Of a DNA stretch of 64,000 nucleotides, positions 1,733-18,212 are shown one piece after another. The stretch covers positions 13,392 through 77,391 of the forward strand of contig CAZENT010000004.1 of assembly GCA_964513845.1 (NCBI GenBank), read 5' to 3'. The stretch is from an uncultured Pseudomonadales bacterium (GTDB taxonomy: Bacteria > Patescibacteriota > Microgenomatia > UBA1400 > MFAQ01). The notes under the pieces are model-generated. The model was not told the DNA's origin and did not search any database. It saw nothing but the letters and a program-made list of their open reading frames with translations. Position numbers and translations under genes: made by a program. Position 1 is the stretch's first letter. Each line of letters opens with the position of its first letter.

Positions 1733-2842
1733 ATGATATCTGAATCCCAATTAAATCTGACTGATCTCAAGCGTCGCATCGATGATCTTCGTTCCAAATT
1801 TGATTTGGTCAAACTAGAAGAAGAAAAACAAAAACTCGAGTTCCAGTCTACTGAGCCATCTCTTTGGCAAGATGAAGACAATGCCAAAAGAGTCATGTCC
1901 AGTCTGGCTGAGATTCGTGACATGATTGGCTCCATTGACGGCCTCACCACTGAGTTAAAAAATCTCGATGAACTTCTCGCTCTAGCAACGGAAAACAATG
2001 ACGACTCCATGGATAGTGAAATTATGATTCTGAAGGATACTTTAGAAAAGCATGTGGACAAAGTCGAGCTTGTTACTTTTCTTTCCGGCAAATACGATGT
2101 TTCAGAAGCCATTCTCACTATCAGAGCCGGACAAGGAGGTACCGAAGCAATGGATTGGGCCAGTATGCTTTCTCGTATGTACACTCGATTTTTTGAAAAA
2201 CGCGGCTGGAGTTACGAAACAGTTGAGTACTCACCTGGGGAAGAGGCAGGCCTTAAATCCGTTACTTACATGATTCACGGCCGTTTCGCTTTTGGTTTTT
2301 TAAAAAATGAAAAAGGCACCCATCGTTTGGTTCGTCAATCTCCCTTCAATGCCGACAAGCTTCGTCAAACCTCTTTTGCCGGTGTCGAAGTTACTCCCAT
2401 TCTTCCCGAAGATGCCGATATTGAAATTAGAGATGAAGACATTGAGTTTGAAGCTAGCCGTTCCGGAGGAGCCGGTGGTCAAAACGTCAACAAGGTTAGT
2501 ACTGCCGTTCGCATCAAACATATCCCAACCGGCATTGTAGTTGAGTGTCAAACACAACGCTATCAAGTTCAAAACCGAAAAATCGCCATGGACATGCTCA
2601 GATCGAAGCTTTGGGAAATTCAAGAAGCCAAGCGTCAGGAAGAGCTCAGTCGTATCAAAGGTGTTCAAACTCAGGCTAGTTGGGGAACCCAAATCCGATC
2701 GTACGTTCTTCATCCCTACAAACTGGTCAAAGATACACGCACTGAATACGAATCATCCAATCCCGACTCAGTTCTCGATGGCAATCTCGACGAGTTTATT
2801 GAGGCGGAGCTAAAGTTCTTCGCCCCAACGCGTCAAATTTGA
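1733..2842 (+). CDS. prfB: Peptide chain release factor 2 (continuous ORF, no programmed +1 frameshift)
   Basis: 369 aa with GGQ motif (RAGQGGTEA) and the RF2-specific SPF tripeptide ([14 protein letters not shown]). N-terminus aligns to RF2 across the usual frameshift site without interruption. Confidence 0.9.
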
Positions 2843-3448: not shown

Positions 3449-4168
3449 ATGATTGATTTTATTCACGTTTCGAAAAGCTACCCCAATGGAGATGTGGTGC
3501 TAGACGACATCGATTTTTCAATCTCACCAGGTGAGTTTGTCATCATTACTGGTAAATCTGGCGCCGGCAAAACCACCATTGGCCGCCTCCTGATTCGTGA
3601 TTTGGTTCCCGACAAAGGCAAAATCATTGTTGAGGGTATTGATCTCACCAAAATTAAGCCCCAAAGTATTCCTCTTCTTCGTCGCAAGATTGGCTTCGCT
3701 TTCCAGGACTTCCGAGTCATTCCGGATAAAACAGTCGGGGAAAACATTACGGTTGCTCTCGAGATTGCCGGTTATGATCCGAAAAAAATTACTGAAAAAA
3801 TTAATCACACTTTATCAATGGTTGGGCTCGCCGGAAAAGAAAATCTTTTTCCCGGTCAGCTTTCCGGAGGTGAGCTTCAAAGAGCGTCCATAGCCAGAGC
3901 CATCGCCGCAGAGCCCCCCGTTCTTTTTGCAGACGAGCCTACAGGCAATTTAGACAAAGAAACCTCTCTCGAAATCTTCAAACTTCTCCAGAAAATCAAC
4001 GACGAAGGCACCACCGTTATTATTGCCACCCACGACATCTCCATCATTAATCTCAACTTTGGCAGTCACATCCACCTTGAAAAAGGTAAGATAGTAAAGA
4101 TAGAAAAACGTAAAGAAGACAAAGAAGATAAGTCAGAAAAAGAAGAAAAAAAGAAGGAGAAAGACTAA
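3449..4168 (+). CDS. ftsE: Cell division ATP-binding protein FtsE with Lys/Glu-rich C-terminal tail
   Basis: Walker A GKSGAGKTT, signature LSGGELQRASIARA, Walker [12 protein letters not shown]. Immediately followed by ftsX. Unusual tail KIEKRKEDKEDKSEKEEKKKEKD. Confidence 0.85.
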   Translation: MIDFIHVSKSYPNGDVVLDDIDFSISPGEFVIITGKSGAGKTTIGRLLIRDLVPDKGKIIVEGIDLTKIKPQSIPLLRRKIGFAFQDFRVIPDKTVGENITVALEIAGYDPKKITEKINHTLSMVGLAGKENLFPGQLSGGELQRASIARAIAAEPPVLFADEPTGNLDKETSLEIFKLLQKINDEGTTVIIATHDISIINLNFGSHIHLEKGKIVKIEKRKEDKEDKSEKEEKKKEKD

Positions 4169-4169
4169 T

Positions 4170-5075
4170 ATGAGTACCGCACTAAAAAACATTCGTCGCT
4201 CACCATATCAGGCAATGTCGGCCATCTTTATCGTGAGTCTAACCATGTTTATCGTCGGCATCTTCGCCCTGGTCACCTTTGCTTCCCAAGAAATTCTCAA
4301 CAACTTCGAAACCAAGCCGCAAATTATTGCTTATCTCAAAGACGGTCACACCACCGATCAAGTTGGTGGTCTATTGGGCTCGCTAAACTCCACTCCCGGA
4401 GTCAAAAAAGCTCTTTACATAAGTAAAGAAGATGCCTTAGAGCTCTACAAAAAGAGTGTTGGCAACGACCCGGTTCTTCTGGGGACTGTTACCGATTGGG
4501 GCATTGTCACCGCCGATATTCTTCCAGCCAGTGTCGAGATCACCGCCCAAAATCCTGAATCTTTCAAAAATATTGCCGCCACCCTAGAAAAAAGTGACAT
4601 TGTCAGTGTCACTCCCTCCGGTAAAAAAGAAATCGACTATCCTCAAGACGTCATCTCCGAGCTTACCAAGTGGACCAATGCCATTCGTATTGGCGGTTTA
4701 GTTTTAGTCATTGCTCTTACTCTAGTTGCCATTCTCACCATCATGACCATCATCTCCATGAAGATTTCTTCCAGAAGATTTGAGATCAGCACTTTCAAGC
4801 TCATGGGCGCCAAAAATTTCTACATCATTAAGCCATATCTTCAAGAATCGGTATTTTACGGTGTTATTGGCGCTTTCATCGGCTGGCTCGGTTGCTTTGT
4901 TACTCTTTTATACTCCACCCCATTCCTAGCTCCGAGAATTGGCTCCATTATTTCGTTCCCCATTTCATATTTGGTCTACCTCATTCTCTTTGGAGTCCTT
5001 ATCATCTTCGGTCTGATTATCTCTTTCCTTTCGAGCCTTTTCGCCGCCAATAGATTCGTCAATCGTTCCAAATGA
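4170..5075 (+). CDS. ftsX: Cell division permease FtsX
   Basis: 301 aa, N-terminal TM, large periplasmic loop, three C-terminal TMs. Position directly after ftsE. Confidence 0.8.
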   Translation: MSTALKNIRRSPYQAMSAIFIVSLTMFIVGIFALVTFASQEILNNFETKPQIIAYLKDGHTTDQVGGLLGSLNSTPGVKKALYISKEDALELYKKSVGNDPVLLGTVTDWGIVTADILPASVEITAQNPESFKNIAATLEKSDIVSVTPSGKKEIDYPQDVISELTKWTNAIRIGGLVLVIALTLVAILTIMTIISMKISSRRFEISTFKLMGAKNFYIIKPYLQESVFYGVIGAFIGWLGCFVTLLYSTPFLAPRIGSIISFPISYLVYLILFGVLIIFGLIISFLSSLFAANRFVNRSK

Positions 5076-6277
5076 AAAAACTATTTTTAGTTTTTGCCAT
5101 TTTGTTTCTTTTTCTATGGATAAAGCCTGTTGTGGCAGTTGAGTGCGACGGGAATCCTCCCTCGGGTGCCGACAAGGTCAATGAAATTCAAGAATACATT
5201 GATAAATGTAATCAAAAAATTACCTCGCTCAAAGGCCAACAGCTCACTCTCCAGCAAACCATCACCACGCTAACTTCCAAAATCAACCTTGCGCAAGGTC
5301 AAATCAATCAAACTCAAGCTCAGATAAATTTACTCGAGAAAGAAGTTAATGTTCTTGATGGGGTTTTGGAAACAGTCAACGATTCCATGGATCAGTTGGG
5401 GGTGATTTACACCGCTCGAGTCCGCGAAAGTTACCGACGCTCTCGAGCCACCCCGGTTGATTTAATCTTTTCGACCACTTCGATAGGAGATTATTTTTCA
5501 AAATTAAAATATCTCAATACCGTCAAAACCAAAGATCAGCTAATTCTCGCTGAGTTGGAAAAATCCAGACTCGATTACGATCAAAGAAAAACAGATAAAG
5601 TTACCAAACAAAAAGAGGTTGAGGCGCTCAAGTCCAAACTGGTCGCCCAAAGAAAAACTTTAGATGCTCAGCAAAAAGAAAAACAAATTCTCTTGGCTCA
5701 AACTCAAAATGACGAAAAGAAATTCCAGTCACTTCTGTCCAAAGCCAGAGCCGAGTTAGAAGCTATCGAAGCTGTTATCGCCGGAAAGGGAACTGAAACG
5801 GAAGTGAGAGAGGTTAAGTCAGGGGACAAAATTGCAAACGTAATTCAAGGGGCTTCGTGTAACTCCAGCGGCTCCCATCTCCATTTCATCGTTGGTCAGG
5901 ATCACGCGGTCAAAAACCCTTTCAATTATCTCAAACCGGTCGATTATGAAAATTGTTCCGGTTCGAGTTGTGGAAGCGGAGATGGTGACACTTTCAACCC
6001 AACGGGTTCTTGGGACTGGCCTCTAAATCCTCGAATTTCACTATATCAGGGATTTGGACTAACCTGGGCCATCAATCACACTTGGGTTAGAAATATTTAT
6101 AGTTCCCATAATGGCATTGATATCAAAAGTGATAGCACTGAAGTTAAGGCTGTTCAGGGTGGTAAACTTTTCCGGGGAAGTTACTCCGGTTCCAATGGCT
6201 GTGCTCTTAAATATGTTCGTGTTGCACACTCAGATGGTGGTCTAGACACCTACTATCTTCACGTAAATTACTACTAG
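5072..6277 (+). CDS. Coiled-coil M23-family peptidase (EnvC-like activator/hydrolase), secreted
   Basis: Signal peptide, long Q/L-rich coiled coil, C-terminal LytM/M23-like region with HxH (SGSHLHFIVGQDH). Classic ftsE-ftsX-envC synteny. 4-nt overlap with ftsX. Confidence 0.65.
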   Translation: MKKLFLVFAILFLFLWIKPVVAVECDGNPPSGADKVNEIQEYIDKCNQKITSLKGQQLTLQQTITTLTSKINLAQGQINQTQAQINLLEKEVNVLDGVLETVNDSMDQLGVIYTARVRESYRRSRATPVDLIFSTTSIGDYFSKLKYLNTVKTKDQLILAELEKSRLDYDQRKTDKVTKQKEVEALKSKLVAQRKTLDAQQKEKQILLAQTQNDEKKFQSLLSKARAELEAIEAVIAGKGTETEVREVKSGDKIANVIQGASCNSSGSHLHFIVGQDHAVKNPFNYLKPVDYENCSGSSCGSGDGDTFNPTGSWDWPLNPRISLYQGFGLTWAINHTWVRNIYSSHNGIDIKSDSTEVKAVQGGKLFRGSYSGSNGCALKYVRVAHSDGGLDTYYLHVNYY

Positions 6278-6324
6278 GTTTTCTTAAGGTAATTTTTCTT
6301 CCAAACTGCTATATTTAGTAAGTA

Positions 6325-7470
6325 ATGAAACAAATCCTGCCCGTGTTGTTTCTTTTAATTTTTTGCTTTTTCCCGAAATCCATTTTTGCCCAAATTTTCA
6401 TCAACGAAGTTAGTCCCATCTCCAGTCCGGAATGGGTAGAGTTATACAACGACTCGGAGGATAATGTCGATATTTCAGGCTGGAAACTAATAGATCTTGC
6501 CAATAATTCAAAAACAATTCCTTCAGTCGTCATCAATGCTCGAGGGTTTTTCGTATACGAAAACAGCAGCGGCTGGCTAAATAACAGCGGTCAGGAATCA
6601 CTTGTTCTAAAAAATTCTGCTAACGAAACAATAGATACTCTTTCATACGGAACGGACGGGATCGTTGGCATACCCTCATCCGATAAAAGCATTGGCAGAT
6701 CTTCAGATGGATCATCATCTTGGGTAAACAATTTAGACTGGACCAAAGGCAGTACCAACTATTTAATTACGACTATCCCTAGCCCTACTGAAACCCCAAC
6801 AGCGACAGAGACTCCAACCTCAAGTCCTACTCCATCCAAATCCATATACAAGATAAACAAACCCAAAGATGAAAATGGCCAAGAACTTTCTAGTGTCGAG
6901 ATCTACGTGGATTCTATTTACACCCATCACAAGGATAACGAAATATTGGAATTTTGTAATGGTTGTTTCTGTGACTCGGGCAAAGCAATTTCTTGCGGGT
7001 ACGGGCAGCACACAATCAAGCTGACAAAGTCTGGCTACTCAGACTGGTCCGAGATACGCAATTTCACTGAGGGTTCAAATCACGAAATCACTCCGATTCT
7101 TACAAAAATCTCCACCCCCACCTCAACAACGTCTACGCAAACTCCAACCTCATCTCCTTCTCCAACTCCTTCCAAAACACTCACGACTGTCATTGCGAGG
7201 AGTACTCCGACGAAGCAATCCCCGACACCAACGACAGTACGGGACTCGATTGTCCTAGGAAGCTCCACCGATTCTGGCACAGTCATTGCGACTCAGTCCG
7301 CTCTTAGCGGAAGCGATAGTGCGGCAATCATAAATAATGAATTAACTCCTTTTCCCGAAATCGAAATCAAAAAGAAAAAACCCATAAATTACAAAAACCC
7401 CTTCTTTATTGGGTTGTTTCTTGCCGCCTCGTCGGGTGGCTTACTATATTTTCGCCATCGAAAAGATTAA
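6325..7470 (+). CDS. Secreted surface protein with N-terminal lamin-tail (LTD)-like domain, Thr/Pro-rich linkers and C-terminal TM anchor
   Basis: Signal peptide. IFINEVSPISSPEWVELYN...ISGWKLID pattern typical of LTD domains. TETPTATETPTSSPTPS and TSTQTPTSSPSPTPS low-complexity linkers. C-terminal hydrophobic segment + RHRKD. Confidence 0.55.
   Translation: MKQILPVLFLLIFCFFPKSIFAQIFINEVSPISSPEWVELYNDSEDNVDISGWKLIDLANNSKTIPSVVINARGFFVYENSSGWLNNSGQESLVLKNSANETIDTLSYGTDGIVGIPSSDKSIGRSSDGSSSWVNNLDWTKGSTNYLITTIPSPTETPTATETPTSSPTPSKSIYKINKPKDENGQELSSVEIYVDSIYTHHKDNEILEFCNGCFCDSGKAISCGYGQHTIKLTKSGYSDWSEIRNFTEGSNHEITPILTKISTPTSTTSTQTPTSSPSPTPSKTLTTVIARSTPTKQSPTPTTVRDSIVLGSSTDSGTVIATQSALSGSDSAAIINNELTPFPEIEIKKKKPINYKNPFFIGLFLAASSGGLLYFRHRKD
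7189..7221 (+). repeat. GTCATTGCGAG-n10-CGAAGCAATC mini-repeat, copy inside the CDS
   Basis: Shares both 10-11-nt end blocks with the intergenic copy at 8305-8340. Internal ATTGC/GCAAT inverted repeat. Confidence 0.35.
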
Positions 7471-8294: not shown

Positions 8295-8304
8295 CCACCC
8301 CAAT

Positions 8305-8340
8305 CGTCATTGCGAGTTTTGCACTCAAACCGAAGCAATC
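8305..8340 (+). repeat. GTCATTGCGAG-n15-CGAAGCAATC mini-repeat, intergenic copy
   Basis: Shares end blocks with 7189-7221. Lies between hairpin copy 2 and tsaB start. Confidence 0.35.
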
Positions 8341-8361
8341 TCTTATACAATTGTAAATATT

Positions 8362-8688
8362 ATGCGAATATACATCGACTCGACCGACAACACCAAAGCC
8401 ATCATCAGAATTGACGACAAGGAATTCACTCGGCACGTCGAAAGTCCTCGCGATCAAGACGTTTTAGGTTTTCTTTTGCATTGTTTGTCGGAGCAAAACA
8501 TCAAGCCGGAAGACATAGACGAAATAGAAGTAAATCCTGGTCCTGGTTCTTTTACGGGCACACGCGTCGGTGTTGCCATTGCCAATATGCTTTCCTATGC
8601 CCTAGACATTAAGGTAAACGGCTCAATGACGCCTGTAGAGCCAATCTATTCCGCACCTCCCTCAATCACGAAAAAGAAAGATACTTGA
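8362..8688 (+). CDS. tsaB: TsaB/YeaZ-like protein, N-terminal domain only (108 aa)
   Basis: Conserved VNPGPGSFTGTRVGVAIANML motif of the inactive Kae1/TsaD paralogue. ORF stops after ~100 aa, whereas full TsaB is ~230 aa. Confidence 0.6.
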   Translation: MRIYIDSTDNTKAIIRIDDKEFTRHVESPRDQDVLGFLLHCLSEQNIKPEDIDEIEVNPGPGSFTGTRVGVAIANMLSYALDIKVNGSMTPVEPIYSAPPSITKKKDT

Positions 8689-8732
8689 CATTGCTGAGGC
8701 TCATAGTAAAATACGTCCTAGAAGGCATTGAT

Positions 8733-8768
8733 ATATAACCTCCATTTGGTCACTTTGGTTATATGGAG
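8733..8768 (+). promoter_or_regulatory. Hairpin in 5' region of giant adhesin gene (ATATAACC...GGTTATAT / CTCCAT...ATGGAG)
   Basis: Two overlapping inverted repeats (8 bp and 6 bp stems) 60 nt upstream of the 8828 start. Confidence 0.25.
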
Positions 8769-8827
8769 CTAATAGTGAAACCGATCTAAAAAAAATTAGA
8801 ACGGCTAAACTGTAAAACCAATAATCA

Positions 8828-11800
8828 ATGAAATCTAGAAACATAAGAAAAATAATTTCGTTTATTTCTTCCTTTAACCTTCTTCTTCAATCTTTCCTCC
8901 CGCTAGCTATTGCAATGCCTGTTTATGCCGAAGATGCTTCTCCTGCAGCCATTGTCGAAGTCTCTCCAACTCCCGAAGTCACCCCGGAAATCACTCCCGA
9001 AGCCACTCCCACACCCGAGATCTCTGTAACTCCAGAACCAACTCCATCTGTGGAAATTACTCCGGAGCCATCAATTTCTCCAACTCCCGAAGTCACCCCC
9101 GAAATCACCCCAGAAATCACTCCAGAGCCAACAGCTGAGATCACCCCAGCCGAACAACAAAATAATGAAGAACAAAAAAACAACTCTCCACCCGCCGAAC
9201 AAAATAATATTCCTGCTGCCACTCCAACCCCCGAACCAACCATTGTCCTTCCCCAACCTCTCTCCGTAATTTCCCAACTCGAACAAGAAGCTCCAATTAT
9301 TTCTCCAACTCTATCAACTGACAAACCAGATTATTTTCCAACCGACACCGTCCACATCACCGGCACCGGCTTTTTAGCCAACACCACTTACACACTACAC
9401 ATATATTCTTCAGACAATCCAATTTTTAGTATTCGTCCAGAAGTATTGTCGGATGAATATGGCAATATTTCTCTATCATTCAGACTTGATGGAAACTACA
9501 GACCAAATTACATCGTCGATGCTATCGACAACAACGATCAAGTTGTTTTATCGTATTCGTTCTTAGATAGCCGCACATTCGTTTCTGTCACAGTAAACGG
9601 AGGATCAACTTCAACTGTGTTACCATCAGGTTCTGTCTCAGTAGACATTGATATTGATACCGATGGTACCGGAGAAGGAAGCGATTGGGAGTCGACAAAG
9701 TACACTATCGAGGGCCAATCTGCGATTTGTGACAACTCCCCCGACTATACATATGGTAGTAGTAGCGGTGCGACATCCACATATTCACTCACCGCTCCTG
9801 CAAATAATGGTACATATGATCTCGCTGTAGTTGCTTACAGTAACAATGGATGCTCAGGGCAAAGTAATACAACAACCCTGACAGACGCAATTACCGTTTC
9901 TTCTTCATTATTACAACCAGTTCTTCCTAATAATCCCTCCGATGATTATGCTCTCACATCAGTATCTGGAGTATGGACCAATGTCACAGGAGGCAGCAAC
10001 ATAACTGGAATTAATACAGAAGAAATTAGATGGGGTGTTCCCTCAGGAAGTCAAAAGAGTGGACTCCGTTTTGATGGAAGTGGTGTTCAAACGTTTAACT
10101 CAGGTAATAGTTTCTATCTTGGCGCTCTCACTCATATGAACTGGGGGACATTATCTGGTGCAGCCTCAGGAGCAAAATTAAACATTACTCTTAGTTTTTC
10201 AAAACCCACACTCTCACCAAACCCAGATTTTAGCTTTGATTTTTCAATCGAAGAAACATCGAATTCGTATGGTCACTGTCCTTCGTGGCAATCATCATTA
10301 ACACCCTGTGATGACAGAATTTCTTTTCCTGTAAGCTATGGCTCAAGAAGTTTTACCATTGGTGACAAACTATTTACCTTGAGAATCGATGGTTTTGTAA
10401 ATCAATATCCAAGTGGATCAACAGTTTCCCAATTTATTACGGAAGAACAAAAAAATAACGTTGCTTATCTTGTTGGATCATTATCATCAGTGTTGGTATC
10501 TTCTCCCCAAATATCTTTAGTTACAAAAGCCGTTGAAGGAGAGGACGCTGATTCAACTCCTGGCCAAAATTTATATGTTGGTGATACCGCCCACTTTACC
10601 TATGTTGTCCAAAACACCGGTAATGTTGATATGACTAGTGTTTCAGTAATTGATGACAGAGGTGTAGTAGTAACATGCCCTCAAACAACCTTAATCTCTG
10701 GTGCTTCGATGACCTGTACTGGTTCGAGTACTGTTGTTGTTGGTCAATACACTAACACCGCTCATGTTCACGGAACATACAACGGCACTGTGTATCAAAG
10801 TAACAATGAATCAGCCAACTATTTCGGAGTTGTTAGAAATGTATGTGGCGATGGCAACAAATCCTCATCCGAAGATTGTGATAATGGCGCAAATAATGGC
10901 ACAGTATGTACTCCTACTTACAATAATACTTGCACTTATTGTTCAGTCTCTTGTGAAATTCAAACAGTTGTTGGTCCAAAATGTGGAGACTACAACGTTG
11001 ACGCTGGAGAAACATGTGATGATGGCAATATTGTCAACGGTGATCACTGTAGTTCAACTTGTCAAACAGAAACTTGGTGTGGCGATGGAGTAAAAAATGG
11101 TTCCGAAGCCTGCGATGGTACAGATCTCGGTGGCTTATCTTCATCAACTTTTTCTTGTAACAAATGTTCACTCGAGTTAGTTGAGCCAAAAGTCACTATC
11201 TGTCACTCAACTAGCAGTCAAAGTAATCCTTATAATGTCCAAAATCCCGCCAAAACTGCCGATGTTTCTGGTCACGATGGTCATGATGGAGTAGTTTGGT
11301 ATCCTGGTATCACTGTCGCTTGGGGAGATATTATTCCTCCCTTCGCCTATATCGGCGGAACATATTCTGGTCAAAACTGGACCACTGAAGGCCAAGCAAT
11401 TTTCAACAATGGATGTAACATTCCCAATTACTGTGGAGATGGTGTAAAAGCCGGTTCCGAAGCTTGTGATGACGGCAACTCTGTCAACACAGATGCCTGT
11501 ACCAATGCTTGTACAGTATCTGTTTGTGGAGACACTATTGTTAATCCCGCAACCGAAGCTTGTGATGACGGCAACTCTGTCAACACAGATGCTTGTACCA
11601 ATGCCTGTACACTTCCTGTTTGTGGCGATAGTTTTGTCCAATCCGGCGAAGTCTGTGACGACGGTAATCGTGTAGACACCGACGCCTGTCGCAACAACTG
11701 CACTTTGCCCGTTTGTGGTGATGGAGTACTCTCCATGTCCGAAGATTGTGATGAAGGTGCTGAAAACGACACCACATGTACACCCGCCTATGGTGGTTCT

Positions 11801-14779
11801 TGTACCTACTGTCATGCTACCGAATGTAAAAACTACACCATCGACGGTCCATACTGTGGTGATGAAACCAAAAATGGTGAGGAACAATGTGATGGTACTG
11901 ATGGCGTCGGTACTCATCAGGTCTGTAATAGCGACTGTATCTTAGAAACTTTGTCATATTGTGGAGACGGAATCAAAGACACCGGTGAAGAATGCGATGG
12001 CACAGCCGGAGTAACAGCAGATAGTAATTTCTGTTCCACCTCTTGTCACTTAGTTCCCATCTACACTGGAAATAACGTTTGTAGTAATGGTAACGTCAAA
12101 GGAACCAAGCTAGCCAGCCAGACTATTTCTTCATCCTCCAAAACAGGTGAGGTTTTGAGTTTAGCTGCAGACAAAGAATATTTATTTGAAGTTAATGGAA
12201 CCTTTATTCCAACATCGGCCCTCGGATATCTCTCAGATGCCGCTCGTACATGGATCAATGGCAGTTTGTCTCCTCTCTATGGTATAAACGCAGCCGCCCC
12301 CGGTTTGGGTGCTCACTCACTGCTGGGTGATCTAGGCGATGGCGTTGGTATCATCAAATGGAACAATGTTTCTGATCATTTATATTCCTTCGCTTACACT
12401 CCAACCAACGACAACCAACAATTTGTTATCGGTGATCGTTATGGAGACTGGTTTAATACCGCCTGGCAAAATCAGGCCGGTATCAACGACAACAGAGGAG
12501 ATCTGACTCTGGATGTTTACGACTGTGTCAATCCAACAGGCAAAATAACTGTCATTAAAAATGTCGATACCAATGCTGACAGAGTTATCGAAATTGAAAA
12601 CTCTACAGATTGGACCTGGGATATTAATGATGGCGAACAAAACATCTCTACTGGTCAATCTAGAACATTAGGAATTGGTAATTACTCCATTTCTGAAGAT
12701 CAACAAGACGGATACACTCTTGTCAGTTGGTCATGTACAGATGGTACTTATGGCACGACAAATTCCATTCCTGTCGCTTTCAATAAGAATGGCGACGATA
12801 TAACTTGTACATTGACCAATGTCCGCGATACTGGTTCAATCGTTGTCAATAAATATATCGATGCTGATGGAGATATCAACACTACTTCCGATCAAACCTT
12901 AAGCGCCAACTGGCAGTTTGATGTAGATGGTCTAGATCTCGACACTACCGATGCTTTGGCTCAGTACACCGGCAGCACCGGTTCGGCCACTTTCGCCGAT
13001 CTCAAAACCGGAGGTTACACTGTAATCGAGACAAAGCAAACAGGTTTCGATCTGGTTTCAGCCAACTGTGGCGTTGAAAACGGCTCGTTTGACGGAACTG
13101 ACTCCGTTGACAACGTCCAGGTCGTCAAGGGTGAAGCAACCACCTGTACCTTCTACAACACACCAAACAGTACTATTCACGGATATAAATGGAGCGACGT
13201 TGATGGTGACGGACAGAAAGATTCTGAAGAGACTCTTCTCTCCGGTTGGACAATAAATCTCTATAAATCCGACGGTGAAGTCTTTGGTACAACACCAATA
13301 GCTACAATGAACACCAGTGAAGGGCAACATACTGGTTGGTACTGGTTCGAAAACCTCCTTCCTGGTCAATACAAGGTTTGCGAAACATTAAAAACTGGTT
13401 GGAGCCAAACATATCCTCAGAATACTGATAAAGACACCTGTCATTATGTCTCACTTCCTGATGGTTCATCGGGTACTCTCTTTGAGGACTCGGCAAGTGG
13501 CAACACTTACAACTTTGGTAACATCCAGTTAGGAAAGATCAACGTCACTAAATATAACGATTTAGATGGCGATGGTTCTCAAGACGAAAATGAAAGAGTC
13601 CTTGGCGGTTGGACAATTTCCCTATCTGATAACGAGAATCAAGTCACTGGTGAAAATGGTAAAGTCTCTTACAACGATCTCAATCCAAACAGAAGTTACA
13701 CTCTAAGTGAAAACATACAAGGAGGTTGGATTCAAACCAACATCTCTTGTACTGTCAATAACTCTGGTGAAGGAGTCAAAATCACTGCTCAGGGAGAAGC
13801 CTACGGACATCACGGTAATTGTGGTGGCTGGAATGGTTGTGGCGATGCTGCTACATGTGCCCAATGGGCCTGTCAAGCAAAAGGCTACGCCAACCTAGTC
13901 TCCTATGGCGAGTCCAAACCCTGTACTCAGTTCAGTAACTGTAATCTATTCAACAGCGGTGCCAATAATGGCGTTGATTACAACTGGGGTAACTGGTGTG
14001 AAGTAGCTGGTGTCACCGACATTGTTTGTAGCAATTCCACCGGGGACTCGTACTCAGGTGAACGTTTACCTCTCTATGCTGGTAACGATCCCGAGAACTC
14101 CAGAAACCTCAATGTAAATGCTGGAGATATTATCAACTGTTCCATCGGCAATCATCGTGTCGAACCCAAGCTCAAAATTAGTCGTTCAAACAATGCCACC
14201 TCATCTCTCACTCCAGGTGGAAGTGTTGAACATACGATTACTATTAAAGTCGAGGATAACAACATTAGTAACCTTAAACTTACCGATCTTCTTCCCAACG
14301 GTTTCAAATTCAGAGCCGGTTCATACTCAGTGATGAAAAACGGAACCGATGTTGTAACCCTGGCTCACGATCCAGAGTATCACTCTCCAGGTGTTTGGGA
14401 GCTCGGAAACTTTAATAAAAATGATGTAATAACTATCAAATACCTTGCTGATATTAGCGGAGACGTCGAACCTGGAACATATCCCGATCTCGCTTCCGCC
14501 ATAGCTAACGATGCATATGAGCAAGGGCTAAGTTTCCTCGCAATCGGAGAAAACTCCAAATATGTTGATGAAAACTTCGTCGGCACCGACGTTGAGATAG
14601 TCAAGAGTCAAACTCGTGACGACTCATACAATGTCGAAAAAGAAGAAATAATTAAAGGCGAAGTTCTCGGTACTTCCACCAGCTTACCCGCAACTGGCGC
14701 TTCTCCGATGTGGCTCATGCTTGCCTTCATCAGTCTTGTCTATGGAATCAGATTAATAAAGTCGAGTAACAAAAAGTAA
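8828..14779 (+). CDS. Giant (1983 aa) sortase-anchored surface protein / putative adhesin
   Basis: Signal peptide; PEVTPEITPE low-complexity tract; ~9 Cys-rich CGDGxxxxxExCDDGNxxxxDxC repeats (Myxococcus-type Cys-rich repeat); several SdrD-B/Cna-B-like DxDGDG...GW modules; DUF11-like C-terminal domain; LPATG followed by hydrophobic span and KK tail. Confidence 0.85.
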   Translation: MKSRNIRKIISFISSFNLLLQSFLPLAIAMPVYAEDASPAAIVEVSPTPEVTPEITPEATPTPEISVTPEPTPSVEITPEPSISPTPEVTPEITPEITPEPTAEITPAEQQNNEEQKNNSPPAEQNNIPAATPTPEPTIVLPQPLSVISQLEQEAPIISPTLSTDKPDYFPTDTVHITGTGFLANTTYTLHIYSSDNPIFSIRPEVLSDEYGNISLSFRLDGNYRPNYIVDAIDNNDQVVLSYSFLDSRTFVSVTVNGGSTSTVLPSGSVSVDIDIDTDGTGEGSDWESTKYTIEGQSAICDNSPDYTYGSSSGATSTYSLTAPANNGTYDLAVVAYSNNGCSGQSNTTTLTDAITVSSSLLQPVLPNNPSDDYALTSVSGVWTNVTGGSNITGINTEEIRWGVPSGSQKSGLRFDGSGVQTFNSGNSFYLGALTHMNWGTLSGAASGAKLNITLSFSKPTLSPNPDFSFDFSIEETSNSYGHCPSWQSSLTPCDDRISFPVSYGSRSFTIGDKLFTLRIDGFVNQYPSGSTVSQFITEEQKNNVAYLVGSLSSVLVSSPQISLVTKAVEGEDADSTPGQNLYVGDTAHFTYVVQNTGNVDMTSVSVIDDRGVVVTCPQTTLISGASMTCTGSSTVVVGQYTNTAHVHGTYNGTVYQSNNESANYFGVVRNVCGDGNKSSSEDCDNGANNGTVCTPTYNNTCTYCSVSCEIQTVVGPKCGDYNVDAGETCDDGNIVNGDHCSSTCQTETWCGDGVKNGSEACDGTDLGGLSSSTFSCNKCSLELVEPKVTICHSTSSQSNPYNVQNPAKTADVSGHDGHDGVVWYPGITVAWGDIIPPFAYIGGTYSGQNWTTEGQAIFNNGCNIPNYCGDGVKAGSEACDDGNSVNTDACTNACTVSVCGDTIVNPATEACDDGNSVNTDACTNACTLPVCGDSFVQSGEVCDDGNRVDTDACRNNCTLPVCGDGVLSMSEDCDEGAENDTTCTPAYGGSCTYCHATECKNYTIDGPYCGDETKNGEEQCDGTDGVGTHQVCNSDCILETLSYCGDGIKDTGEECDGTAGVTADSNFCSTSCHLVPIYTGNNVCSNGNVKGTKLASQTISSSSKTGEVLSLAADKEYLFEVNGTFIPTSALGYLSDAARTWINGSLSPLYGINAAAPGLGAHSLLGDLGDGVGIIKWNNVSDHLYSFAYTPTNDNQQFVIGDRYGDWFNTAWQNQAGINDNRGDLTLDVYDCVNPTGKITVIKNVDTNADRVIEIENSTDWTWDINDGEQNISTGQSRTLGIGNYSISEDQQDGYTLVSWSCTDGTYGTTNSIPVAFNKNGDDITCTLTNVRDTGSIVVNKYIDADGDINTTSDQTLSANWQFDVDGLDLDTTDALAQYTGSTGSATFADLKTGGYTVIETKQTGFDLVSANCGVENGSFDGTDSVDNVQVVKGEATTCTFYNTPNSTIHGYKWSDVDGDGQKDSEETLLSGWTINLYKSDGEVFGTTPIATMNTSEGQHTGWYWFENLLPGQYKVCETLKTGWSQTYPQNTDKDTCHYVSLPDGSSGTLFEDSASGNTYNFGNIQLGKINVTKYNDLDGDGSQDENERVLGGWTISLSDNENQVTGENGKVSYNDLNPNRSYTLSENIQGGWIQTNISCTVNNSGEGVKITAQGEAYGHHGNCGGWNGCGDAATCAQWACQAKGYANLVSYGESKPCTQFSNCNLFNSGANNGVDYNWGNWCEVAGVTDIVCSNSTGDSYSGERLPLYAGNDPENSRNLNVNAGDIINCSIGNHRVEPKLKISRSNNATSSLTPGGSVEHTITIKVEDNNISNLKLTDLLPNGFKFRAGSYSVMKNGTDVVTLAHDPEYHSPGVWELGNFNKNDVITIKYLADISGDVEPGTYPDLASAIANDAYEQGLSFLAIGENSKYVDENFVGTDVEIVKSQTRDDSYNVEKEEIIKGEVLGTSTSLPATGASPMWLMLAFISLVYGIRLIKSSNKK
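11455..11740 (+). repeat. Three tandem 96-nt (32-codon) Cys-repeat units; first two ~97% identical over the ~59-nt compared stretch
   Basis: ccgaagcttgtgatgacggcaactctgtcaacacagatgcYtgtaccaatgcYtgtaca occurs at 11455 and again 96 nt later at 11551. Third unit diverged. Confidence 0.7.
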
Positions 14780-15751
14780 ATGAAATTAAAACTATTCCTT
14801 CTCACTGTCCTCAGTGTCGCCGGACTGATGCTTCCTGGTCTTTCTTTTGCATCGGTGAGTCCTTTGACAGTTAATCTTGGCCAGCCCAAGTCACCCACCA
14901 GACTAGACAATTTAAAACTCACCTTTGTTGTTCTCCAAATTGGTGGAACAGAAAATATTGCAGTCAGTTGTTACAAAAAGTCACCCTCAGACAGTGCTTA
15001 CGTCAAGTTTCAAGACATTTCTTTGATCCCTGGCGGCAACACCGATTTCTGCAACGTTACCAGCAGTATTCTCAACACCCCAGGCACCTACAAATTTAAA
15101 GTCCAAGCCAATGGAGTCAAAGACAGTAATGAAATTACTGTCGACTACAACAACAACGCCCCCAGTACCCCAGGTTCATACTCCAAAGAGAGGCTTAATG
15201 ATTGTGATTACAAGATCAAATTCAAAACTGCCGACGATGGTCGTACTACCAAGGTGGAGCTCTATAGATCAGACACTACTTCAATATCTATTGACTCGAG
15301 TCATCTGGTGGGTACTCAAAACATAAATCCAAACACCGAAGGTAGTATCACCAACAGCATTCCAGTTTGTGGCAAAGAGTATTTCTACGCCATCAGAGCC
15401 GTTGACAACTCAGAAAATGTTTCGGGAATTACCGGTGATAATCAAACAAAATTCATCACCGACTCAACCACAACGACTACAACTACCACAACCGGAACAT
15501 CCACAACAGGTACAACTCAAGGCGCTTTAGTCACAGGAGATGGTTCTCAGGTCACAGTCGAAGGAACAATAACTCCTGGAGCAGAAGCCACCATTACTCC
15601 CGCAGAAGGAACAGGCACAGACTCACCTCAACCAGGAACACCGGAAGTCTTAGGTACCCAAACATCCAAATGGACAAATCTCAAATGGCTTTCGATTCCT
15701 CTGGTTCTTGTTGCTTTCTACTTCTTCCGCAAGTCCAGAAAACGCGCATAA
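14780..15751 (+). CDS. Secreted surface protein with two Ig/FN3-like domains, poly-Thr linker and C-terminal TM anchor
   Basis: Signal peptide; beta-rich repeats (TYKFKVQANG..., YFYAIRAVDNSENVSG resembling FN3 C-terminal strands); TTTTTTTTTTGTSTTGTT linker; C-terminal LSIPLVLVAFYFF+RKSRKRA. No LPXTG. Confidence 0.55.
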   Translation: MKLKLFLLTVLSVAGLMLPGLSFASVSPLTVNLGQPKSPTRLDNLKLTFVVLQIGGTENIAVSCYKKSPSDSAYVKFQDISLIPGGNTDFCNVTSSILNTPGTYKFKVQANGVKDSNEITVDYNNNAPSTPGSYSKERLNDCDYKIKFKTADDGRTTKVELYRSDTTSISIDSSHLVGTQNINPNTEGSITNSIPVCGKEYFYAIRAVDNSENVSGITGDNQTKFITDSTTTTTTTTTGTSTTGTTQGALVTGDGSQVTVEGTITPGAEATITPAEGTGTDSPQPGTPEVLGTQTSKWTNLKWLSIPLVLVAFYFFRKSRKRA

Positions 15752-15760
15752 TTGACTAAG

Positions 15761-16324
15761 ATGAAGCGCATAGCCGGAATCATTTTAATTGCGATTGCTC
15801 TGTTGGTAATTTTTGCGACTTTTTTTCCTCTAGCCAAAAACGAAGTCACCTATCAATATTATCGGATTAAAGGAGGCTCATCAGAAATCACCCAACCTCT
15901 CTCGCCAGATTTTGGCATTGTGATTCCAACTCTGGGCATCAACGCCAAAGTGATCAAAAATGTTAATCCCTATGACGCCAACATCTATCAAAAAGCCCTG
16001 ACACGGGGAGTGGCTCACGCCGAAGGCACTGCACTTCCGGATGGAACAGGTAATATATTTATTTTTTCTCACTCCTCCGAAAATTTTTACGAAGCCGTTC
16101 GTTACAACTCCGTTTTTTATCTTCTTCCCAAATTGGAAATAGGGGACACCATTTCCTTGTATTACAACTCAATAAAATACGACTATCATGTTTCAGAAAA
16201 AAAGATTGTTGACCCAGCCAACACTCAATATCTCACCAAAAAATCCGACAAACCCCAGCTCACCTTAATGACCTGCTATCCTCCAGGAACAAACTTCAAA
16301 CGTTTCATCATTGTCGCAAACTAG
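15761..16324 (+). CDS. Sortase (transpeptidase) with N-terminal TM anchor
   Basis: TLMTC active-site cysteine motif, upstream His (IFIFSHSS), C-terminal Arg in KRFIIVAN. Directly downstream of the LPATG protein. Alternative TTG start at 15752. Confidence 0.75.
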   Translation: MKRIAGIILIAIALLVIFATFFPLAKNEVTYQYYRIKGGSSEITQPLSPDFGIVIPTLGINAKVIKNVNPYDANIYQKALTRGVAHAEGTALPDGTGNIFIFSHSSENFYEAVRYNSVFYLLPKLEIGDTISLYYNSIKYDYHVSEKKIVDPANTQYLTKKSDKPQLTLMTCYPPGTNFKRFIIVAN

Positions 16325-16349
16325 ACCCTGTGGCATAATGAAATAAGTT

Positions 16350-17198
16350 ATGGCTCATCCATTTATTACTCTTTTCGCACCTCATCCTCACAACAACCAC
16401 AAGGCGAAAATCCTCTGGCCTCGATCTATCGTTATTCTCATCGGTCTTTTTGTCATGGGCCGATCGATTGTTGATATTTCTGTTGGTCTTCAGCCGGGAG
16501 TTTTGGGTTTTGCTTCCCAGATTAGCCCCACCAAAGTCATTGAGCTCACCAACGCCGAGCGCTTAAACGCCGGTGTTTCCATCGTCAAAGAAAACTCAGA
16601 GTTAAATCAAGCCGCTCTCGCCAAAGCCGCAGACATGTTTGAAAACAATTACTGGGCTCACATCTCACCCACAGGCACTGAGCCTTGGTACTTCGTCACT
16701 CAGTCAGGCTACAAATATCAACACGCTGGAGAAAACCTCGCCCGCGACTTTAGCAATCCCAAGGATGTTGTGGCCGCCTGGATGGCCTCTCCAACCCATC
16801 GTCAGAATCTTCTCGACGATCGTTACAAAGATATTGGTATTGCCGTTACGGACGGGTACATAAATGGTGTAGAAACTACTTTGGTCGTTCAAATGTTTGG
16901 CACAACCAAAACTTCCGTCGCTAAGATAGCCTCATCCAAAGTAACCAACACTACCGCCTATGCCGAGGAAGTTCTTCCCGAGAAGCTCATCCCCAGCTCC
17001 GGCATGTCTCCCATGGATCTTTCTCGAGCCTGGTCACTTGCTTTCGTTGTTTTAATTCTATTAGCTCTTAGTCTCGACTGGATCTTTGTCCTCCGATACA
17101 ACATCGTTCGTATCTCCGGCAAAACCTGGGCTCATCTTACTTACTTCGTCGGTCTGGCCATTATTCTTCTTATTATTCGTCAAGGAATTGTCCTATGA
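16350..17198 (+). CDS. CAP/SCP/PR-1 (YkwD-like) domain protein with membrane anchors
   Basis: LTNAERLNAG...NYWAHISPTG...HAGENLA...AWMASPTHRQNLLDDRYKDIGIAV matches the CAP-domain consensus blocks. N- and C-terminal TM segments. Confidence 0.65.
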   Translation: MAHPFITLFAPHPHNNHKAKILWPRSIVILIGLFVMGRSIVDISVGLQPGVLGFASQISPTKVIELTNAERLNAGVSIVKENSELNQAALAKAADMFENNYWAHISPTGTEPWYFVTQSGYKYQHAGENLARDFSNPKDVVAAWMASPTHRQNLLDDRYKDIGIAVTDGYINGVETTLVVQMFGTTKTSVAKIASSKVTNTTAYAEEVLPEKLIPSSGMSPMDLSRAWSLAFVVLILLALSLDWIFVLRYNIVRISGKTWAHLTYFVGLAIILLIIRQGIVL

Positions 17199-17449
17199 AA
17201 AAACCAATTCGCAGCCTCTTCGACTATCTCATTCTTTCCTTGATCGTTTCCATTGCTATTATTCTCATTCTTTACTTCAATGGCAGCAAATTTTATCAAG
17301 AAATCATTATTATCGGACTTTCTATACTATATATAGTATGGGGTATTTTCCATCACGCCAAAGAGAAAACCTTGCAGGCACGAGTGATTCTCGAATACGT
17401 GCTCTTCGGGCTTCTTGGTTCAGTGATAGTTATCGGCCTATTAAAGTAG
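17195..17449 (+). CDS. Small membrane protein (84 aa, 3 TM)
   Basis: ATGA overlap with upstream gene, strongly hydrophobic. No homology assigned. Confidence 0.4.
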   Translation: MKKPIRSLFDYLILSLIVSIAIILILYFNGSKFYQEIIIIGLSILYIVWGIFHHAKEKTLQARVILEYVLFGLLGSVIVIGLLK

Positions 17450-17471
17450 TCGGTTTGTACAAGCTGTATAA

Positions 17472-18212
17472 TTGCAAAATATGAAAGGAATTATTCTAGC
17501 CGGTGGTCGTGCGACCAGACTTAGGCCTCTCACTTGGGTAATCAGCAAGCAGCTTCTTCCCGTTTACAACAAACCGATGATCTTCTACCCGATTGAAACC
17601 CTGGTCAAGGCGGGGATTAAAGATATTCTAATTATTCTCGCTCCCGAAAACGCCGGTCTTTTTCTAAATCTTCTCGGCACTGGTGAAGAATTTGGAGTTC
17701 ATTTTAGTTATGTTATTCAGAAGGAACCTCGTGGTTTGGCTGAGGCTTTTATCTTAGCCGAAGATTTCCTAGATCACGATGATGTGACGATGATTTTAGG
17801 CGACAATATTTTTGAACACGACTTTAGTAAAGAAATTCAATCTTTCAAAAAAGGCGGTCAAATTTACATCAAAAAACTAGACAACATCGATGATGTCAAA
17901 AGGTTGGGTGTTGTCGAGCTAGACGAAAAAGGCCAGATCAAATCAATTGAGGAAAAACCGGAAAAGCCCAAGTCTATGTTTGTTTCGGTTGGTATTTATA
18001 CATTTGATAATCGAGTGGTTGAAATAGCCAAAAATCTTCCTCTTTCCAAACGTGGTGAGCTGGAGATTAGTGGCAATCCAAGTATCAACAACACCTATTT
18101 GGAGATGGGGGAGTTGGTCGCTTGTGAATTCGACACATACTGGCAAGATGCTGGCACCTTCGACAGTCTATTAGAAGCCGGAAATTACATGTCCAAAAAA
18201 GCGTTACCTTAA
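17472..18212 (+). CDS. rmlA: Sugar-1-phosphate nucleotidyltransferase, short-form glucose-1-phosphate thymidylyltransferase-like
   Basis: GIILAGGRATRLRPLT...K(Q)LLPV...KPMI(F)YP nucleotide-binding signature. Followed by rmlB and rmlD. Start could also be 17481. Confidence 0.7.
   Translation: MQNMKGIILAGGRATRLRPLTWVISKQLLPVYNKPMIFYPIETLVKAGIKDILIILAPENAGLFLNLLGTGEEFGVHFSYVIQKEPRGLAEAFILAEDFLDHDDVTMILGDNIFEHDFSKEIQSFKKGGQIYIKKLDNIDDVKRLGVVELDEKGQIKSIEEKPEKPKSMFVSVGIYTFDNRVVEIAKNLPLSKRGELEISGNPSINNTYLEMGELVACEFDTYWQDAGTFDSLLEAGNYMSKKALP

Follow-up and report, generated by a model that had tools for sequence, protein, structure and literature searches.

How ultra-small, host-dependent bacteria of the candidate phyla radiation recognize, attach to and detach from their hosts is a central open question, and work so far has mainly concerned type IV pili. 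We analyzed a 64,000-nucleotide (nt) stretch of contig CAZENT010000004.1 (hereafter the window, to which all positions refer unless a related locus, designated by an L number, is named). In it, a gene for a giant protein with a C-terminal LPATG motif is followed by a gene for a tandem-FN3 membrane protein and by a sortase gene. What does this locus build, and what switches it on? We propose that it is an operon controlled by a riboswitch for cyclic di-GMP (c-di-GMP), which builds one sortase-anchored, adhesin-like surface fibre in a Collierbacteria-like bacterium. We consider this account as a whole probable, with real room for doubt; that it involves a secreted sortase substrate, a dedicated sortase and a genuine class II-type aptamer we hold with high confidence. 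An earlier reading of the three genes from their sequence (the original prediction) holds up as far as sequence can show, and was incomplete rather than wrong. It overlooked a choice-of-anchor K domain in the giant protein, the riboswitch and the tight coupling of the giant and FN3 proteins. What is added here is the riboswitch, the breadth of the three-gene module and the giant-FN3 fusions.

The three open reading frames (ORFs) lie where the original prediction had placed them, and no competing long ORF crosses the stretch in the six-frame ORF list. The genes are tightly packed. The TAA of the giant gene runs straight into the ATG of the FN3 gene (TAAATG), and 9 nt separate the FN3 gene from the likely start of the sortase, an ATG at 15761 that gene callers also chose on independent assemblies. 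A gene for a CAP/YkwD-family secreted protein starts 25 nt past the sortase. It stands directly 3' of the sortase in the Collierbacteria-type loci whose gene tables we read, with one intervening gene in L093 and L215; it may belong to the same transcript and is an uncertain member of the module. We found no convincing terminator for the 3' end of the operon between 16324 and ~21000, none scoring above shuffled expectation.

An identical copy of the sortase lies on an NCBI contig of 132,676 bp, and its nearest named relative is from Candidatus Collierbacteria bacterium GW2011_GWC2_45_15 (71% identity). This genome and further Collierbacteria-type contigs have one gene order in common: an M23 or C39-type peptidase, VanZ, TsaE, TsaB, the giant protein, a ~310-aa protein, the sortase, CAP, and RmlA/B/D onwards. 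Because the closest named homologues are from Collierbacteria and the window is fully syntenic with their locus, we assign it, on homology and gene order, to a Collierbacteria-like lineage within the candidate phyla radiation (Patescibacteria, Microgenomates group). The earlier description of a small-genome, probably host-associated organism is reasonable for such a lineage.

Is the giant protein a sortase substrate? It opens with a readable signal peptide. At its extreme C-terminus, LPATG is followed only by ~20 hydrophobic residues and the basic tail IRLIKSSNKK, so that the motif does not lie inside a folded domain, the case that the original prediction had named against itself; its picture of a secreted protein with a C-terminal LPATG signal holds. 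The giant proteins of relatives end in an equal signal (...VLG(A/T)(S/T)T.LPATGA), again with a hydrophobic segment and a basic tail, and no other LPXTG-type C-terminal signal was found in the 64-kb window. The domains expected from the first reading were also recovered (Table 1). The cysteine-rich repeats, put at about nine, number exactly nine by the pattern CGD...C(D/E)...C...C, and TIGR02232 (103 bits; cut-off 20.8) and DUF4215 (53.6 bits; cut-off 27) both match the protein above their cut-offs. The SdrD-B/Cna-B-type modules appear as SpaA_2, SpaA_4 and SdrD_B matches, with a DxDxDG motif in two modules, both of them SdrD_B. The DUF11-like domain is there, together with a second one just below threshold. 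The Pro/Thr/Glu-rich tract that had been called a stalk exists, but it sits at the distal, N-terminal end and not beside the anchor.

One of the unannotated stretches, the ~85-aa module with the motif K-V-T-I-C-H...NPY...GHDGH...GDIIPPF, was matched by no Pfam model in a credible way, even with E allowed up to 1; the one hit, of 12.9 bits, is at chance level. Seven proteins that carry it likewise lack a Pfam match over the module. It was found in 2043 cluster representatives at E <= 1e-3 and in 691 at E <= 1e-10. The carriers are proteins of 140 to ~3000 aa with 1–5 copies each, and in the small ones the module often stands just after the signal peptide. It looks like an undescribed extracellular domain, possibly metal-binding.

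The third ORF had been called a sortase with a TLxTC motif. It contains TLMTC, matches Pfam PF04203 Sortase (E = 7e-23, 81.1 bits; cut-off 26.6) and TIGR01076 (55.7 bits; cut-off 39.35), and is predicted to adopt a sortase fold. Its AlphaFold2 model (predicted local distance difference test score, pLDDT, 82.3) consists of an N-terminal membrane helix (aa 2–36) and a beta-barrel. The best Foldseek matches, at probability 1.0, were sortases of class D (4d70) and class C (2xwg, 6ixz), namely SrtD and SrtC of Clostridium perfringens and SrtC-1 of Actinomyces oris; many further sortases matched at this probability. A profile search against PDB sequences agreed with this set of relatives. The His/Cys/Arg triad, whose absence would have spoken against a sortase, is present: across 28 aligned homologues (51–73% identity), H104, C172 and R181 do not vary. 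We tried to place the enzyme in a class and gave this up, as sequence and fold both fall between classes C and D. All NCBIfam class models score far below their cut-offs (given in brackets): class C 64.8 (160), SrtD 60.2 (140), class D 57.9 (165), class E 36.2 (160) and class F 16.8 (166). With every class-specific model below its cut-off, we leave this sortase without a class.

The 323-aa protein encoded between the two had been described as a second signal-peptide protein with FN3-like folds and a Thr linker, and its predicted structure bears this out. A signal peptide precedes two FN3-like domains (aa ~27–124 and ~130–227), a Thr-rich linker (aa 228–297), a C-terminal membrane helix and a basic tail. 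In the AlphaFold2 model, built on a 43-sequence alignment, both domains are seven-strand beta-sandwiches that match FN3 structures (pLDDT >90), aa 230–287 are disordered and aa 299–322 form the C-terminal helix. Neither Pfam nor NCBIfam models match the protein, and none of its 81 homologues has a name. Four cysteines (C64, C91, C142 and C197) are invariant among 66 homologues. The C-terminus (...PEVLGTQTS..., a hydrophobic segment, RKSRKRA) resembles that of the giant protein (...GEVLGTSTSLPATG...) but has no LPXTG, and an LPXTG-like motif is lacking in 65 of 68 homologues. From these features, we take it to be a type I membrane protein held by a long, flexible tether, and not a donor substrate of the sortase.

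How widely do the three genes travel together? A scan with one genome per species showed the sortase family to be spread through the Microgenomates group and adjoining lineages (Collier-, Woese-, Gottesman-, Shapiro-, Davies-, Levy-, Roizman- and Moranbacteria, and WWE3). The sortase ORF was readable in 76 loci. A giant LPXTG protein, an FN3 homologue and the sortase follow one another in the same order in at least 64 of the 76, so the check for the same gene-sortase pairing in related genomes, proposed with the original prediction, came out positive. In 37 loci, a separate giant LPXTG gene (700–2700 aa) precedes a ~320-aa gene. In another 27, giant and FN3 parts form a single ORF; these include L058 (4030–9954), L009, L017, L028, L042, L044, L048, L051, L062, L063, L069, L074, L075, L080, L081 and L083. 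Neither part was found upstream of the sortase in 12 loci, most of which are contig ends. In the single ORFs, the internal LPxTG with its hydrophobic segment and basic tail leads straight into what resembles a signal peptide, beyond which lies the FN3 homologue, with 31–45% identity to the FN3 protein of the window (E = 1e-29 to 1e-49). The repeated fusion into one ORF argues that the giant and FN3 proteins act jointly, in equal amounts. Since the sorting signal runs directly into a signal-peptide-like segment, the layout also suggests that the fused ORFs encode a polyprotein cut by sortase and signal peptidase.

This coupling raises the question of what the sortase joins the giant protein to. 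The acceptor might be an amine of the FN3 protein itself, a lysine or the mature N-terminus, and not peptidoglycan. The product would then be a covalent two-subunit fibre on a Thr-rich tether, like a minimal tip-plus-base pilus. Back-to-back genes in at least 64 of the 76 loci, with a single ORF in 27, imply the 1:1 production that such a fibre would call for. The giant protein has no Pro/Thr wall-spanning tract before its LPATG, while the FN3 protein has a disordered Thr-rich linker of ~70 residues. The nearest relatives of the sortase, by sequence and structure, include the pilin-polymerizing class C, and a hydrophobic strand near the mature N-terminus of the FN3 protein leads into a (Q/E)PK motif, which we take to be reminiscent of the YPK pilin motif. 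However, no lysine is invariant among the 66 homologues (K136 87%, K158 87%, K37 78%). Inspection of the ~14 poorly conserved residues between membrane helix and first strand of the sortase revealed no DP(F/W/Y) motif of a class C lid, and the class-specific models all fail by a wide margin. Lys37 of the (Q/E)PK motif was considered as a universal pilin-like nucleophile and rejected: it is absent in WWE3, Moranbacteria and some Shapirobacteria. We regard covalent joining to the FN3 protein as unlikely and prefer anchoring of the giant protein to peptidoglycan, with the FN3 protein as a separate partner.

What would such a fibre do? In syntenic orthologues of the giant protein, the N-terminal ~190–360 aa and the C-terminal ~200–250 aa are conserved (~36–70% identity), the latter comprising the DUF11-like domain and the sorting signal. 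The middle varies in domain content, total length ranges from 865 to ~2400 aa, and close relatives have nothing that corresponds to several modules of the protein in the window. Against this rearranged middle, sortase and FN3 protein keep ~59–73% identity in the closest relatives. A reshuffled middle is usual for adhesins and other surface proteins under diversifying selection, and not for self-assembling lattice proteins. The mosaic thus fits an attachment role for an exposed, diversifying surface protein. On domain content and mosaic evolution together, we read the giant protein as a putative adhesin with moderate confidence.

We wondered how the operon might be regulated. An Rfam scan of the whole window gave a match to the c-di-GMP-II riboswitch (RF01786) in the leader of the giant gene, covering model positions 1–84 of 84. 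It scores 65.0 bits, where the gathering score is 53.5, with E = 2.9e-12 over the full window. The aptamer ends 32 nt before the ATG. The sigma-70-type promoter in front of it is the best promoter-like site in 8300–17600, with 11 of 12 positions matched, and its -35 box, spacing and TAnAAT -10 box are kept in relatives. The functional core of the aptamer probably starts at 8719, with UAGA pairing with UCUA at 8785–8788. UGGU (8747–8750) and ACCG (8780–8783), which we take to be the pseudoknot strands of this class (P3 loop and 3' tail), are complementary and invariant in all eight sequences aligned, and give no covariation signal either way. The ligand-contacting nucleotides of the class II aptamer are not listed in a review of the field (PMC9495366).

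The aptamer recurs in the same tsaB-to-giant spacer in L004, L005, L084/85/87, L086, L088/89, L090 and L216, and in the WWE3 bacterium L058 the equivalent ORF has a diverged copy in front of it (55 bits, Rfam). The riboswitch occupies this position in eight distinct loci, the window and seven further distinct relatives, one of them WWE3; aptamers of relatives score 67, 63 and 55 bits. Covariation was scored on eight copies, seven of them distinct (L216 was found afterwards), in an alignment fitted to the model, which somewhat favours the structure. In P3, five of eight pairs changed on both sides with 98% of cells paired, and P2 was 95% paired. The covariation score of the whole structure was reached by none of 500 shuffles, and controls with slid partners were 28–37% paired versus 75%. 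Because these compensatory pair changes are unmatched by shuffles or slid partners, we conclude from sequence comparison that the aptamer is under selection in these lineages.

A metagenome scan with an aptamer sub-pattern was tried and set aside: the matches came from many unrelated, often high-GC organisms, lay mostly before secreted proteins and were not specific to the candidate phyla radiation. In unrelated metagenome contigs (L105, L119, L121, L155, L163, L169 / L106, L120, L133, L136, L137, L151), the same c-di-GMP-II sequence subtype repeatedly precedes two small protein types. One is of ~55–170 aa, mostly ~55–70, with two CxxC pairs (K-C-x-x-C-G-x-x-Y-Y-G...), and the other is a membrane protein of ~90–120 aa (...R-Y-x-L-Y-V-L-F-G-x-I-V-A-D-G...).

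How might ligand binding reach the operon? An alternative hairpin follows, the 5' arm of which overlaps the 3' end of the aptamer (the ACCG strand and the 3' strand of P1) and pairs with the next 9 nt (CCGAUCUAA with UUAGAUCGG). In the window, it folds at -8.6 kcal/mol with one mismatch. In L090 and L058, the hairpin is followed by U6–U7 and forms a canonical intrinsic terminator. From these two relatives and the behaviour of class II riboswitches, we infer with moderate confidence that the element is an ON switch; for the window locus, the direction is carried over from them rather than established.

Several observations weigh against an operon switched on by c-di-GMP, and the first lie in the element itself. 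The outer half of the 11-pair P1 of the Rfam model is mostly unpaired, leaving the four inner pairs (UAGA/UCUA; GAGA/UCUC in L058). This can be explained by the predicted transcription start, which falls at the first paired bases: the outer seven P1 positions lie at it or upstream. The hairpin has no U-run in the window, L004, L005, L084, L086 and L088 and is degenerate in L216; of the eight distinct loci, six have either no canonical terminator or a degenerate hairpin.

These departures may mean that the aptamer has changed its ligand or its mechanism, and now answers to another dinucleotide, works as an OFF switch or controls translation or RNA stability. Besides the truncated P1 and the missing U-run in most Collierbacteria-type loci, the core differs from the consensus (UGGUCAC for UGGGCAC, GUGAAACCG for GUGCAACCG). 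Rfam has variant families in the same clan, and the scan output omits a lower-scoring overlapping match from that clan. The CAUUGAU of the aptamer (8726–8732) is complementary to AUCAAUG over the start codon (8824–8830) in five of the eight distinct loci, and pairs with it in predicted minimum-energy folds. The organism also largely lacks Shine-Dalgarno sequences: even a purine-rich match of 3–4 nt precedes only ~1/4 of the 31 gene starts inspected in the window, and most of the others follow A/U-rich sequence. Yet the canonical RF01786 model scores best, above its gathering threshold, and L090 and L058 carry textbook terminators arranged like known ON switches. The start-codon complementarity is lost in L086, L216 and L058 and, on a rough estimate, would occur by chance in ~4% of sequences; we rejected translational control through this pairing as anything but a minor possibility. 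A changed ligand or mechanism is in our judgment improbable, and we keep to a c-di-GMP-responsive ON switch. The scarcity of Shine-Dalgarno sequences bears on any riboswitch control of translation in this organism.

The distribution of the riboswitch adds to these objections. Most Microgenomates loci with the module lack it, for example in Woesebacteria, Gottesmanbacteria and other Collierbacteria clades, and in L092 (5540–5650) it has decayed, with the promoter and the first ~17 nt kept and P3 deleted. Because it is missing from most module-bearing loci and decayed in L092, the riboswitch is a lineage-specific addition and not a core part of the module. In L092, a short AU-rich hairpin and a T6 run lie after the aptamer remnant, before an otherwise intact giant-FN3-sortase operon. 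On the side of the protein, we identified no domain with a demonstrated ligand in the giant protein, and adhesion is deduced from its make-up. Could it instead be a constitutive S-layer-like coat or an envelope scaffold for cell integrity, with the riboswitch as a minor or decaying modulator? Nearly all Microgenomates-group loci sampled have the module, mostly without a riboswitch, and L092 loses the aptamer and keeps the operon. That the expression platform of the window has no U-run, and that its sole LPXTG protein adjoins the sortase gene, would also suit a coat. A decaying modulator is hard to square, however, with an aptamer that is under purifying selection in eight lineages, compensatory changes included. 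The middle of the giant protein is reshuffled among close relatives, which is adhesin-like rather than lattice-like, and its SdrD_B, SpaA and DUF11 content is typical of fibrillar surface proteins. We give a constitutive coat little credence and retain the regulated adhesin-like fibre.

The supply of c-di-GMP is the main gap in the argument for operon control. A motif scan of all frames of the window and of 1.48 Mb of mostly syntenic loci found no GGDEF, HD-GYP or PilZ gene. The window has no credible EAL pattern, and Pfam tables for ~8 kb beyond each of its ends hold no c-di-GMP gene; these scans cover mostly one syntenic neighbourhood and say little about whole genomes. Diguanylate cyclase genes are reported from ultra-small groundwater genomes and are commoner in sediment-attached populations (PMC9938205).

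Taken together, these results suggest the following mechanism. Transcription would start at the strong promoter and give an RNA whose first ~77 nt fold as a c-di-GMP-II aptamer. Without ligand, the 3' strand of the aptamer would pair with the next 9 nt, the pairing that yields a canonical terminator in L090 and L058; with c-di-GMP bound, this strand would be held in the aptamer and the operon would be expressed. The 1983-aa protein would be exported via Sec and retained in the membrane by its C-terminal LPATG signal. The sortase (Cys172/His104/Arg181) would cleave between Thr and Gly and transfer the giant protein to an envelope amine, most simply, to judge from sortase chemistry, a peptidoglycan precursor. 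The FN3 protein would come from the same transcript (in many relatives, it is part of the same polypeptide) and would stay in the membrane on its Thr-rich tether, probably as a stoichiometric structural partner of the fibre. The mosaic middle of the giant protein, with its Cys repeats, choice-of-anchor K, DUF11, SpaA/SdrD_B and unannotated modules, would contact the host cell or a substrate. In a bolder form, which we consider a long shot, c-di-GMP would gate attachment to host or substrate in the candidate phyla radiation through a giant adhesin covalently joined to a tandem-FN3 stalk and not to the wall, a sortase product of a kind not described before, often made as one polyprotein cut by sortase and signal peptidase. 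On this bolder reading, if the riboswitch-bearing genomes proved to lack diguanylate cyclases, the host cell would have to supply the signal.

The locus thus points to a second, widely conserved surface system in Microgenomates, in which a giant, fast-evolving substrate comes with its own sortase and a partner protein. In one lineage this system has a recognizable input, c-di-GMP, and a second messenger may control surface attachment. As a recent perspective notes, inducible expression in these bacteria would also profit from a native leader that responds to a ligand (PMC11665869).

Table 1. Features of the operon, its leader and its products, with neighbouring features of the window (aa, residue numbers in the encoded protein).
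Feature	Window position	Residues	Strand	Details
FtsE/FtsX, then coiled-coil M23 peptidase and secreted Lamin-tail-domain protein	3449–7470			
Secreted Lamin-tail-domain protein	6325–7470			
Sigma-70-type promoter	8685–8712		+	TTGACA-16 nt-TAAAAT; predicted transcription start ~8718–8720, at the aptamer's first paired bases
c-di-GMP-II riboswitch aptamer (RF01786)	8712–8795		+	
Alternative hairpin	8781–8804		+	CCGATCTAA, loop, TTAGAACGG; presumed expression platform
Giant LPATG protein gene	8828–14779	1983 aa	+	ATG start; six-frame ORF list
Giant protein: signal peptide		aa 1–34		MKSRNIRK, hydrophobic stretch, cleavage between ...PVYA and ED; sequence read and hydropathy scan
Giant protein: Pro/Glu/Thr tract		aa 35–160		23% Pro, 17% Glu, 13% Thr; partly 12-nt TPE(I/V) repeats
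Giant protein: Ig-like region		aa 161–375		
Giant protein: choice-of-anchor K domain		aa 378–548		91.5 bits
Giant protein: DUF7507/DUF11		aa 560–653		Pfam/NCBIfam
Giant protein: Cys repeats, block of three		aa 673–782		
Giant protein: CH..NPY..GDIIP module	11174–11431	aa 783–868		unannotated
Giant protein: Cys repeats, block of six		aa 869–1085		
Giant protein: beta-rich domain		aa 1086–1232		unannotated
Giant protein: four SpaA/SdrD_B modules		aa 1239–1650		SpaA_2, SpaA_4, two SdrD_B-type
Giant protein: Cys-rich domain		aa 1655–1775		
Giant protein: second DUF11-like domain		aa ~1791–1891		just below threshold, 22.2 bits versus 24.6
Giant protein: sorting signal LPATG	14684–14698	aa 1953–1957	+	
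Giant protein: hydrophobic segment	14699–14758		+	
Giant protein: basic tail	14759–14776		+	
Tandem-FN3 membrane protein gene	14780–15751	323 aa	+	ATG start; six-frame ORF list
Sortase ORF	15752–16324	190 aa	+	open from TTG 15752; 187 aa from the likely start, ATG 15761
Sortase: catalytic His	16070–16072	His104	+	
Sortase: catalytic Cys	16274–16276	Cys172	+	in TLMTC
Sortase: catalytic Arg	16301–16303	Arg181	+	
CAP/YkwD-family secreted protein	16350–17198		+	C-terminal membrane segment; Pfam CAP E = 7e-19
Surface-glycan region	17472–63213			extends at least 8 kb past the window end (L217)
DUF3800 gene	25620–26300		+	
DUF3800-V RNA (RF02964)	26410–26315		-	74.7 bits
DUF3800-V RNA: promoter	26445–26417		-	TTGACA-17-TATTAT, near consensus
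DUF3800-V RNA: terminator-like hairpin and T-run	26306–26289		-	

The surroundings of the operon hold further envelope genes. Upstream, FtsE/FtsX and a coiled-coil M23 peptidase have the arrangement of a PcsB-like division hydrolase, and a secreted Lamin-tail-domain protein has Pro/Thr/Ser linkers and a C-terminal membrane anchor, without LPXTG. Downstream lies a surface-glycan region that is exceptionally long for a small genome. It encodes RmlA/B/D (dTDP-rhamnose), at least nine glycosyltransferases of family GT2, one of GT1, a Wzx-type flippase and ~10 paralogous membrane proteins of the GT-C type (PMT_2, PTPS_related, YfhO; those at 56–63 kb taken from L217 tables), with several unannotated ORFs of 500–1060 aa interspersed. 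O-glycosylation of the Pro/Thr tracts of the giant protein by these glycosyltransferases, which the original prediction had raised, is plausible as a putative modification. PADLOC defence-system models matched none of the module proteins. The second of the two Rfam hits in the window, a DUF3800-V RNA, runs towards the 3' end of a convergent DUF3800 gene; this gene matches the PADLOC candidate-defence models PDC-M04A and DUF3800_VII.

How does the locus compare with known systems? In the searchable literature, we found no paper that combines c-di-GMP, a riboswitch and Patescibacteria, and sortases of candidate phyla radiation bacteria had passing mentions only in the papers found. The giant protein shares features with the Sdr/Cna-type adhesins of staphylococci (microbial surface components recognizing adhesive matrix molecules), which carry SdrD B repeats. 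In both, tandem SdrD_B/SpaA modules with DxDxDG calcium-type motifs stand before an LPXTG anchor. Unlike these adhesins, the giant protein has no match to the A-region ligand-binding domain, is far larger and mosaic, and includes myxobacterial-type Cys repeats, a choice-of-anchor K domain and several unannotated modules; its low-complexity tract is N-terminal and not beside the wall anchor.

Gram-positive clusters for sortase-assembled pili, such as spaABC-srtA of Corynebacterium diphtheriae, combine a large adhesin-like LPXTG protein, a smaller protein of Ig (immunoglobulin) or FN3 type and a dedicated sortase. The module resembles them in its compact layout, in its SpaA-type prealbumin-like modules and in a sortase whose nearest solved relatives include class C. 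In contrast to pilus clusters, the smaller protein could not be polymerized as a donor, since 65 of its 68 homologues have no LPXTG. There is no visible class C lid, the class C model reaches 64.8 of the 160 bits called for, and a pilin-type lysine is not invariant. We know of no pilus locus with a single-ORF fusion like that of the 27 loci here.

Riboswitch control of an adhesin has precedents. In Bacillus thuringiensis, a c-di-GMP riboswitch (Bc2) controls the collagen adhesion protein Cap (PMC4933901). The two cases are alike in having a c-di-GMP riboswitch in the 5' untranslated region of an adhesin gene and a second messenger tied to surface adhesion. Bc2 belongs to class I (GEMM-I), with a different aptamer fold, and controls a single gene, which has neither a sortase of its own nor a partner protein.

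The closest known system is that of Clostridioides difficile, where class II c-di-GMP riboswitches are transcriptional ON switches before the sortase substrates CD2831, which binds collagen, and CD3246 (PMC11477304). C. difficile is a Firmicute, whereas the organism here belongs to the candidate phyla radiation, and the riboswitch here stands before an operon in which the sortase and a conserved FN3 membrane partner are encoded as well. Unlike in C. difficile, we saw no equivalent of PPEP-1, the c-di-GMP-repressed releasing protease; the window lacks the terminator U-run, and c-di-GMP synthesis is only presumed. What the two systems share is a c-di-GMP-II aptamer in the 5' leader of an LPXTG-type, adhesin-like gene with Cna-B/SpaA-type modules. 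They also share a terminator whose 5' arm overlaps the 3' end of the aptamer, here in the relatives L090 and L058, and the expected logic that high c-di-GMP would bring more adhesin to the cell surface.

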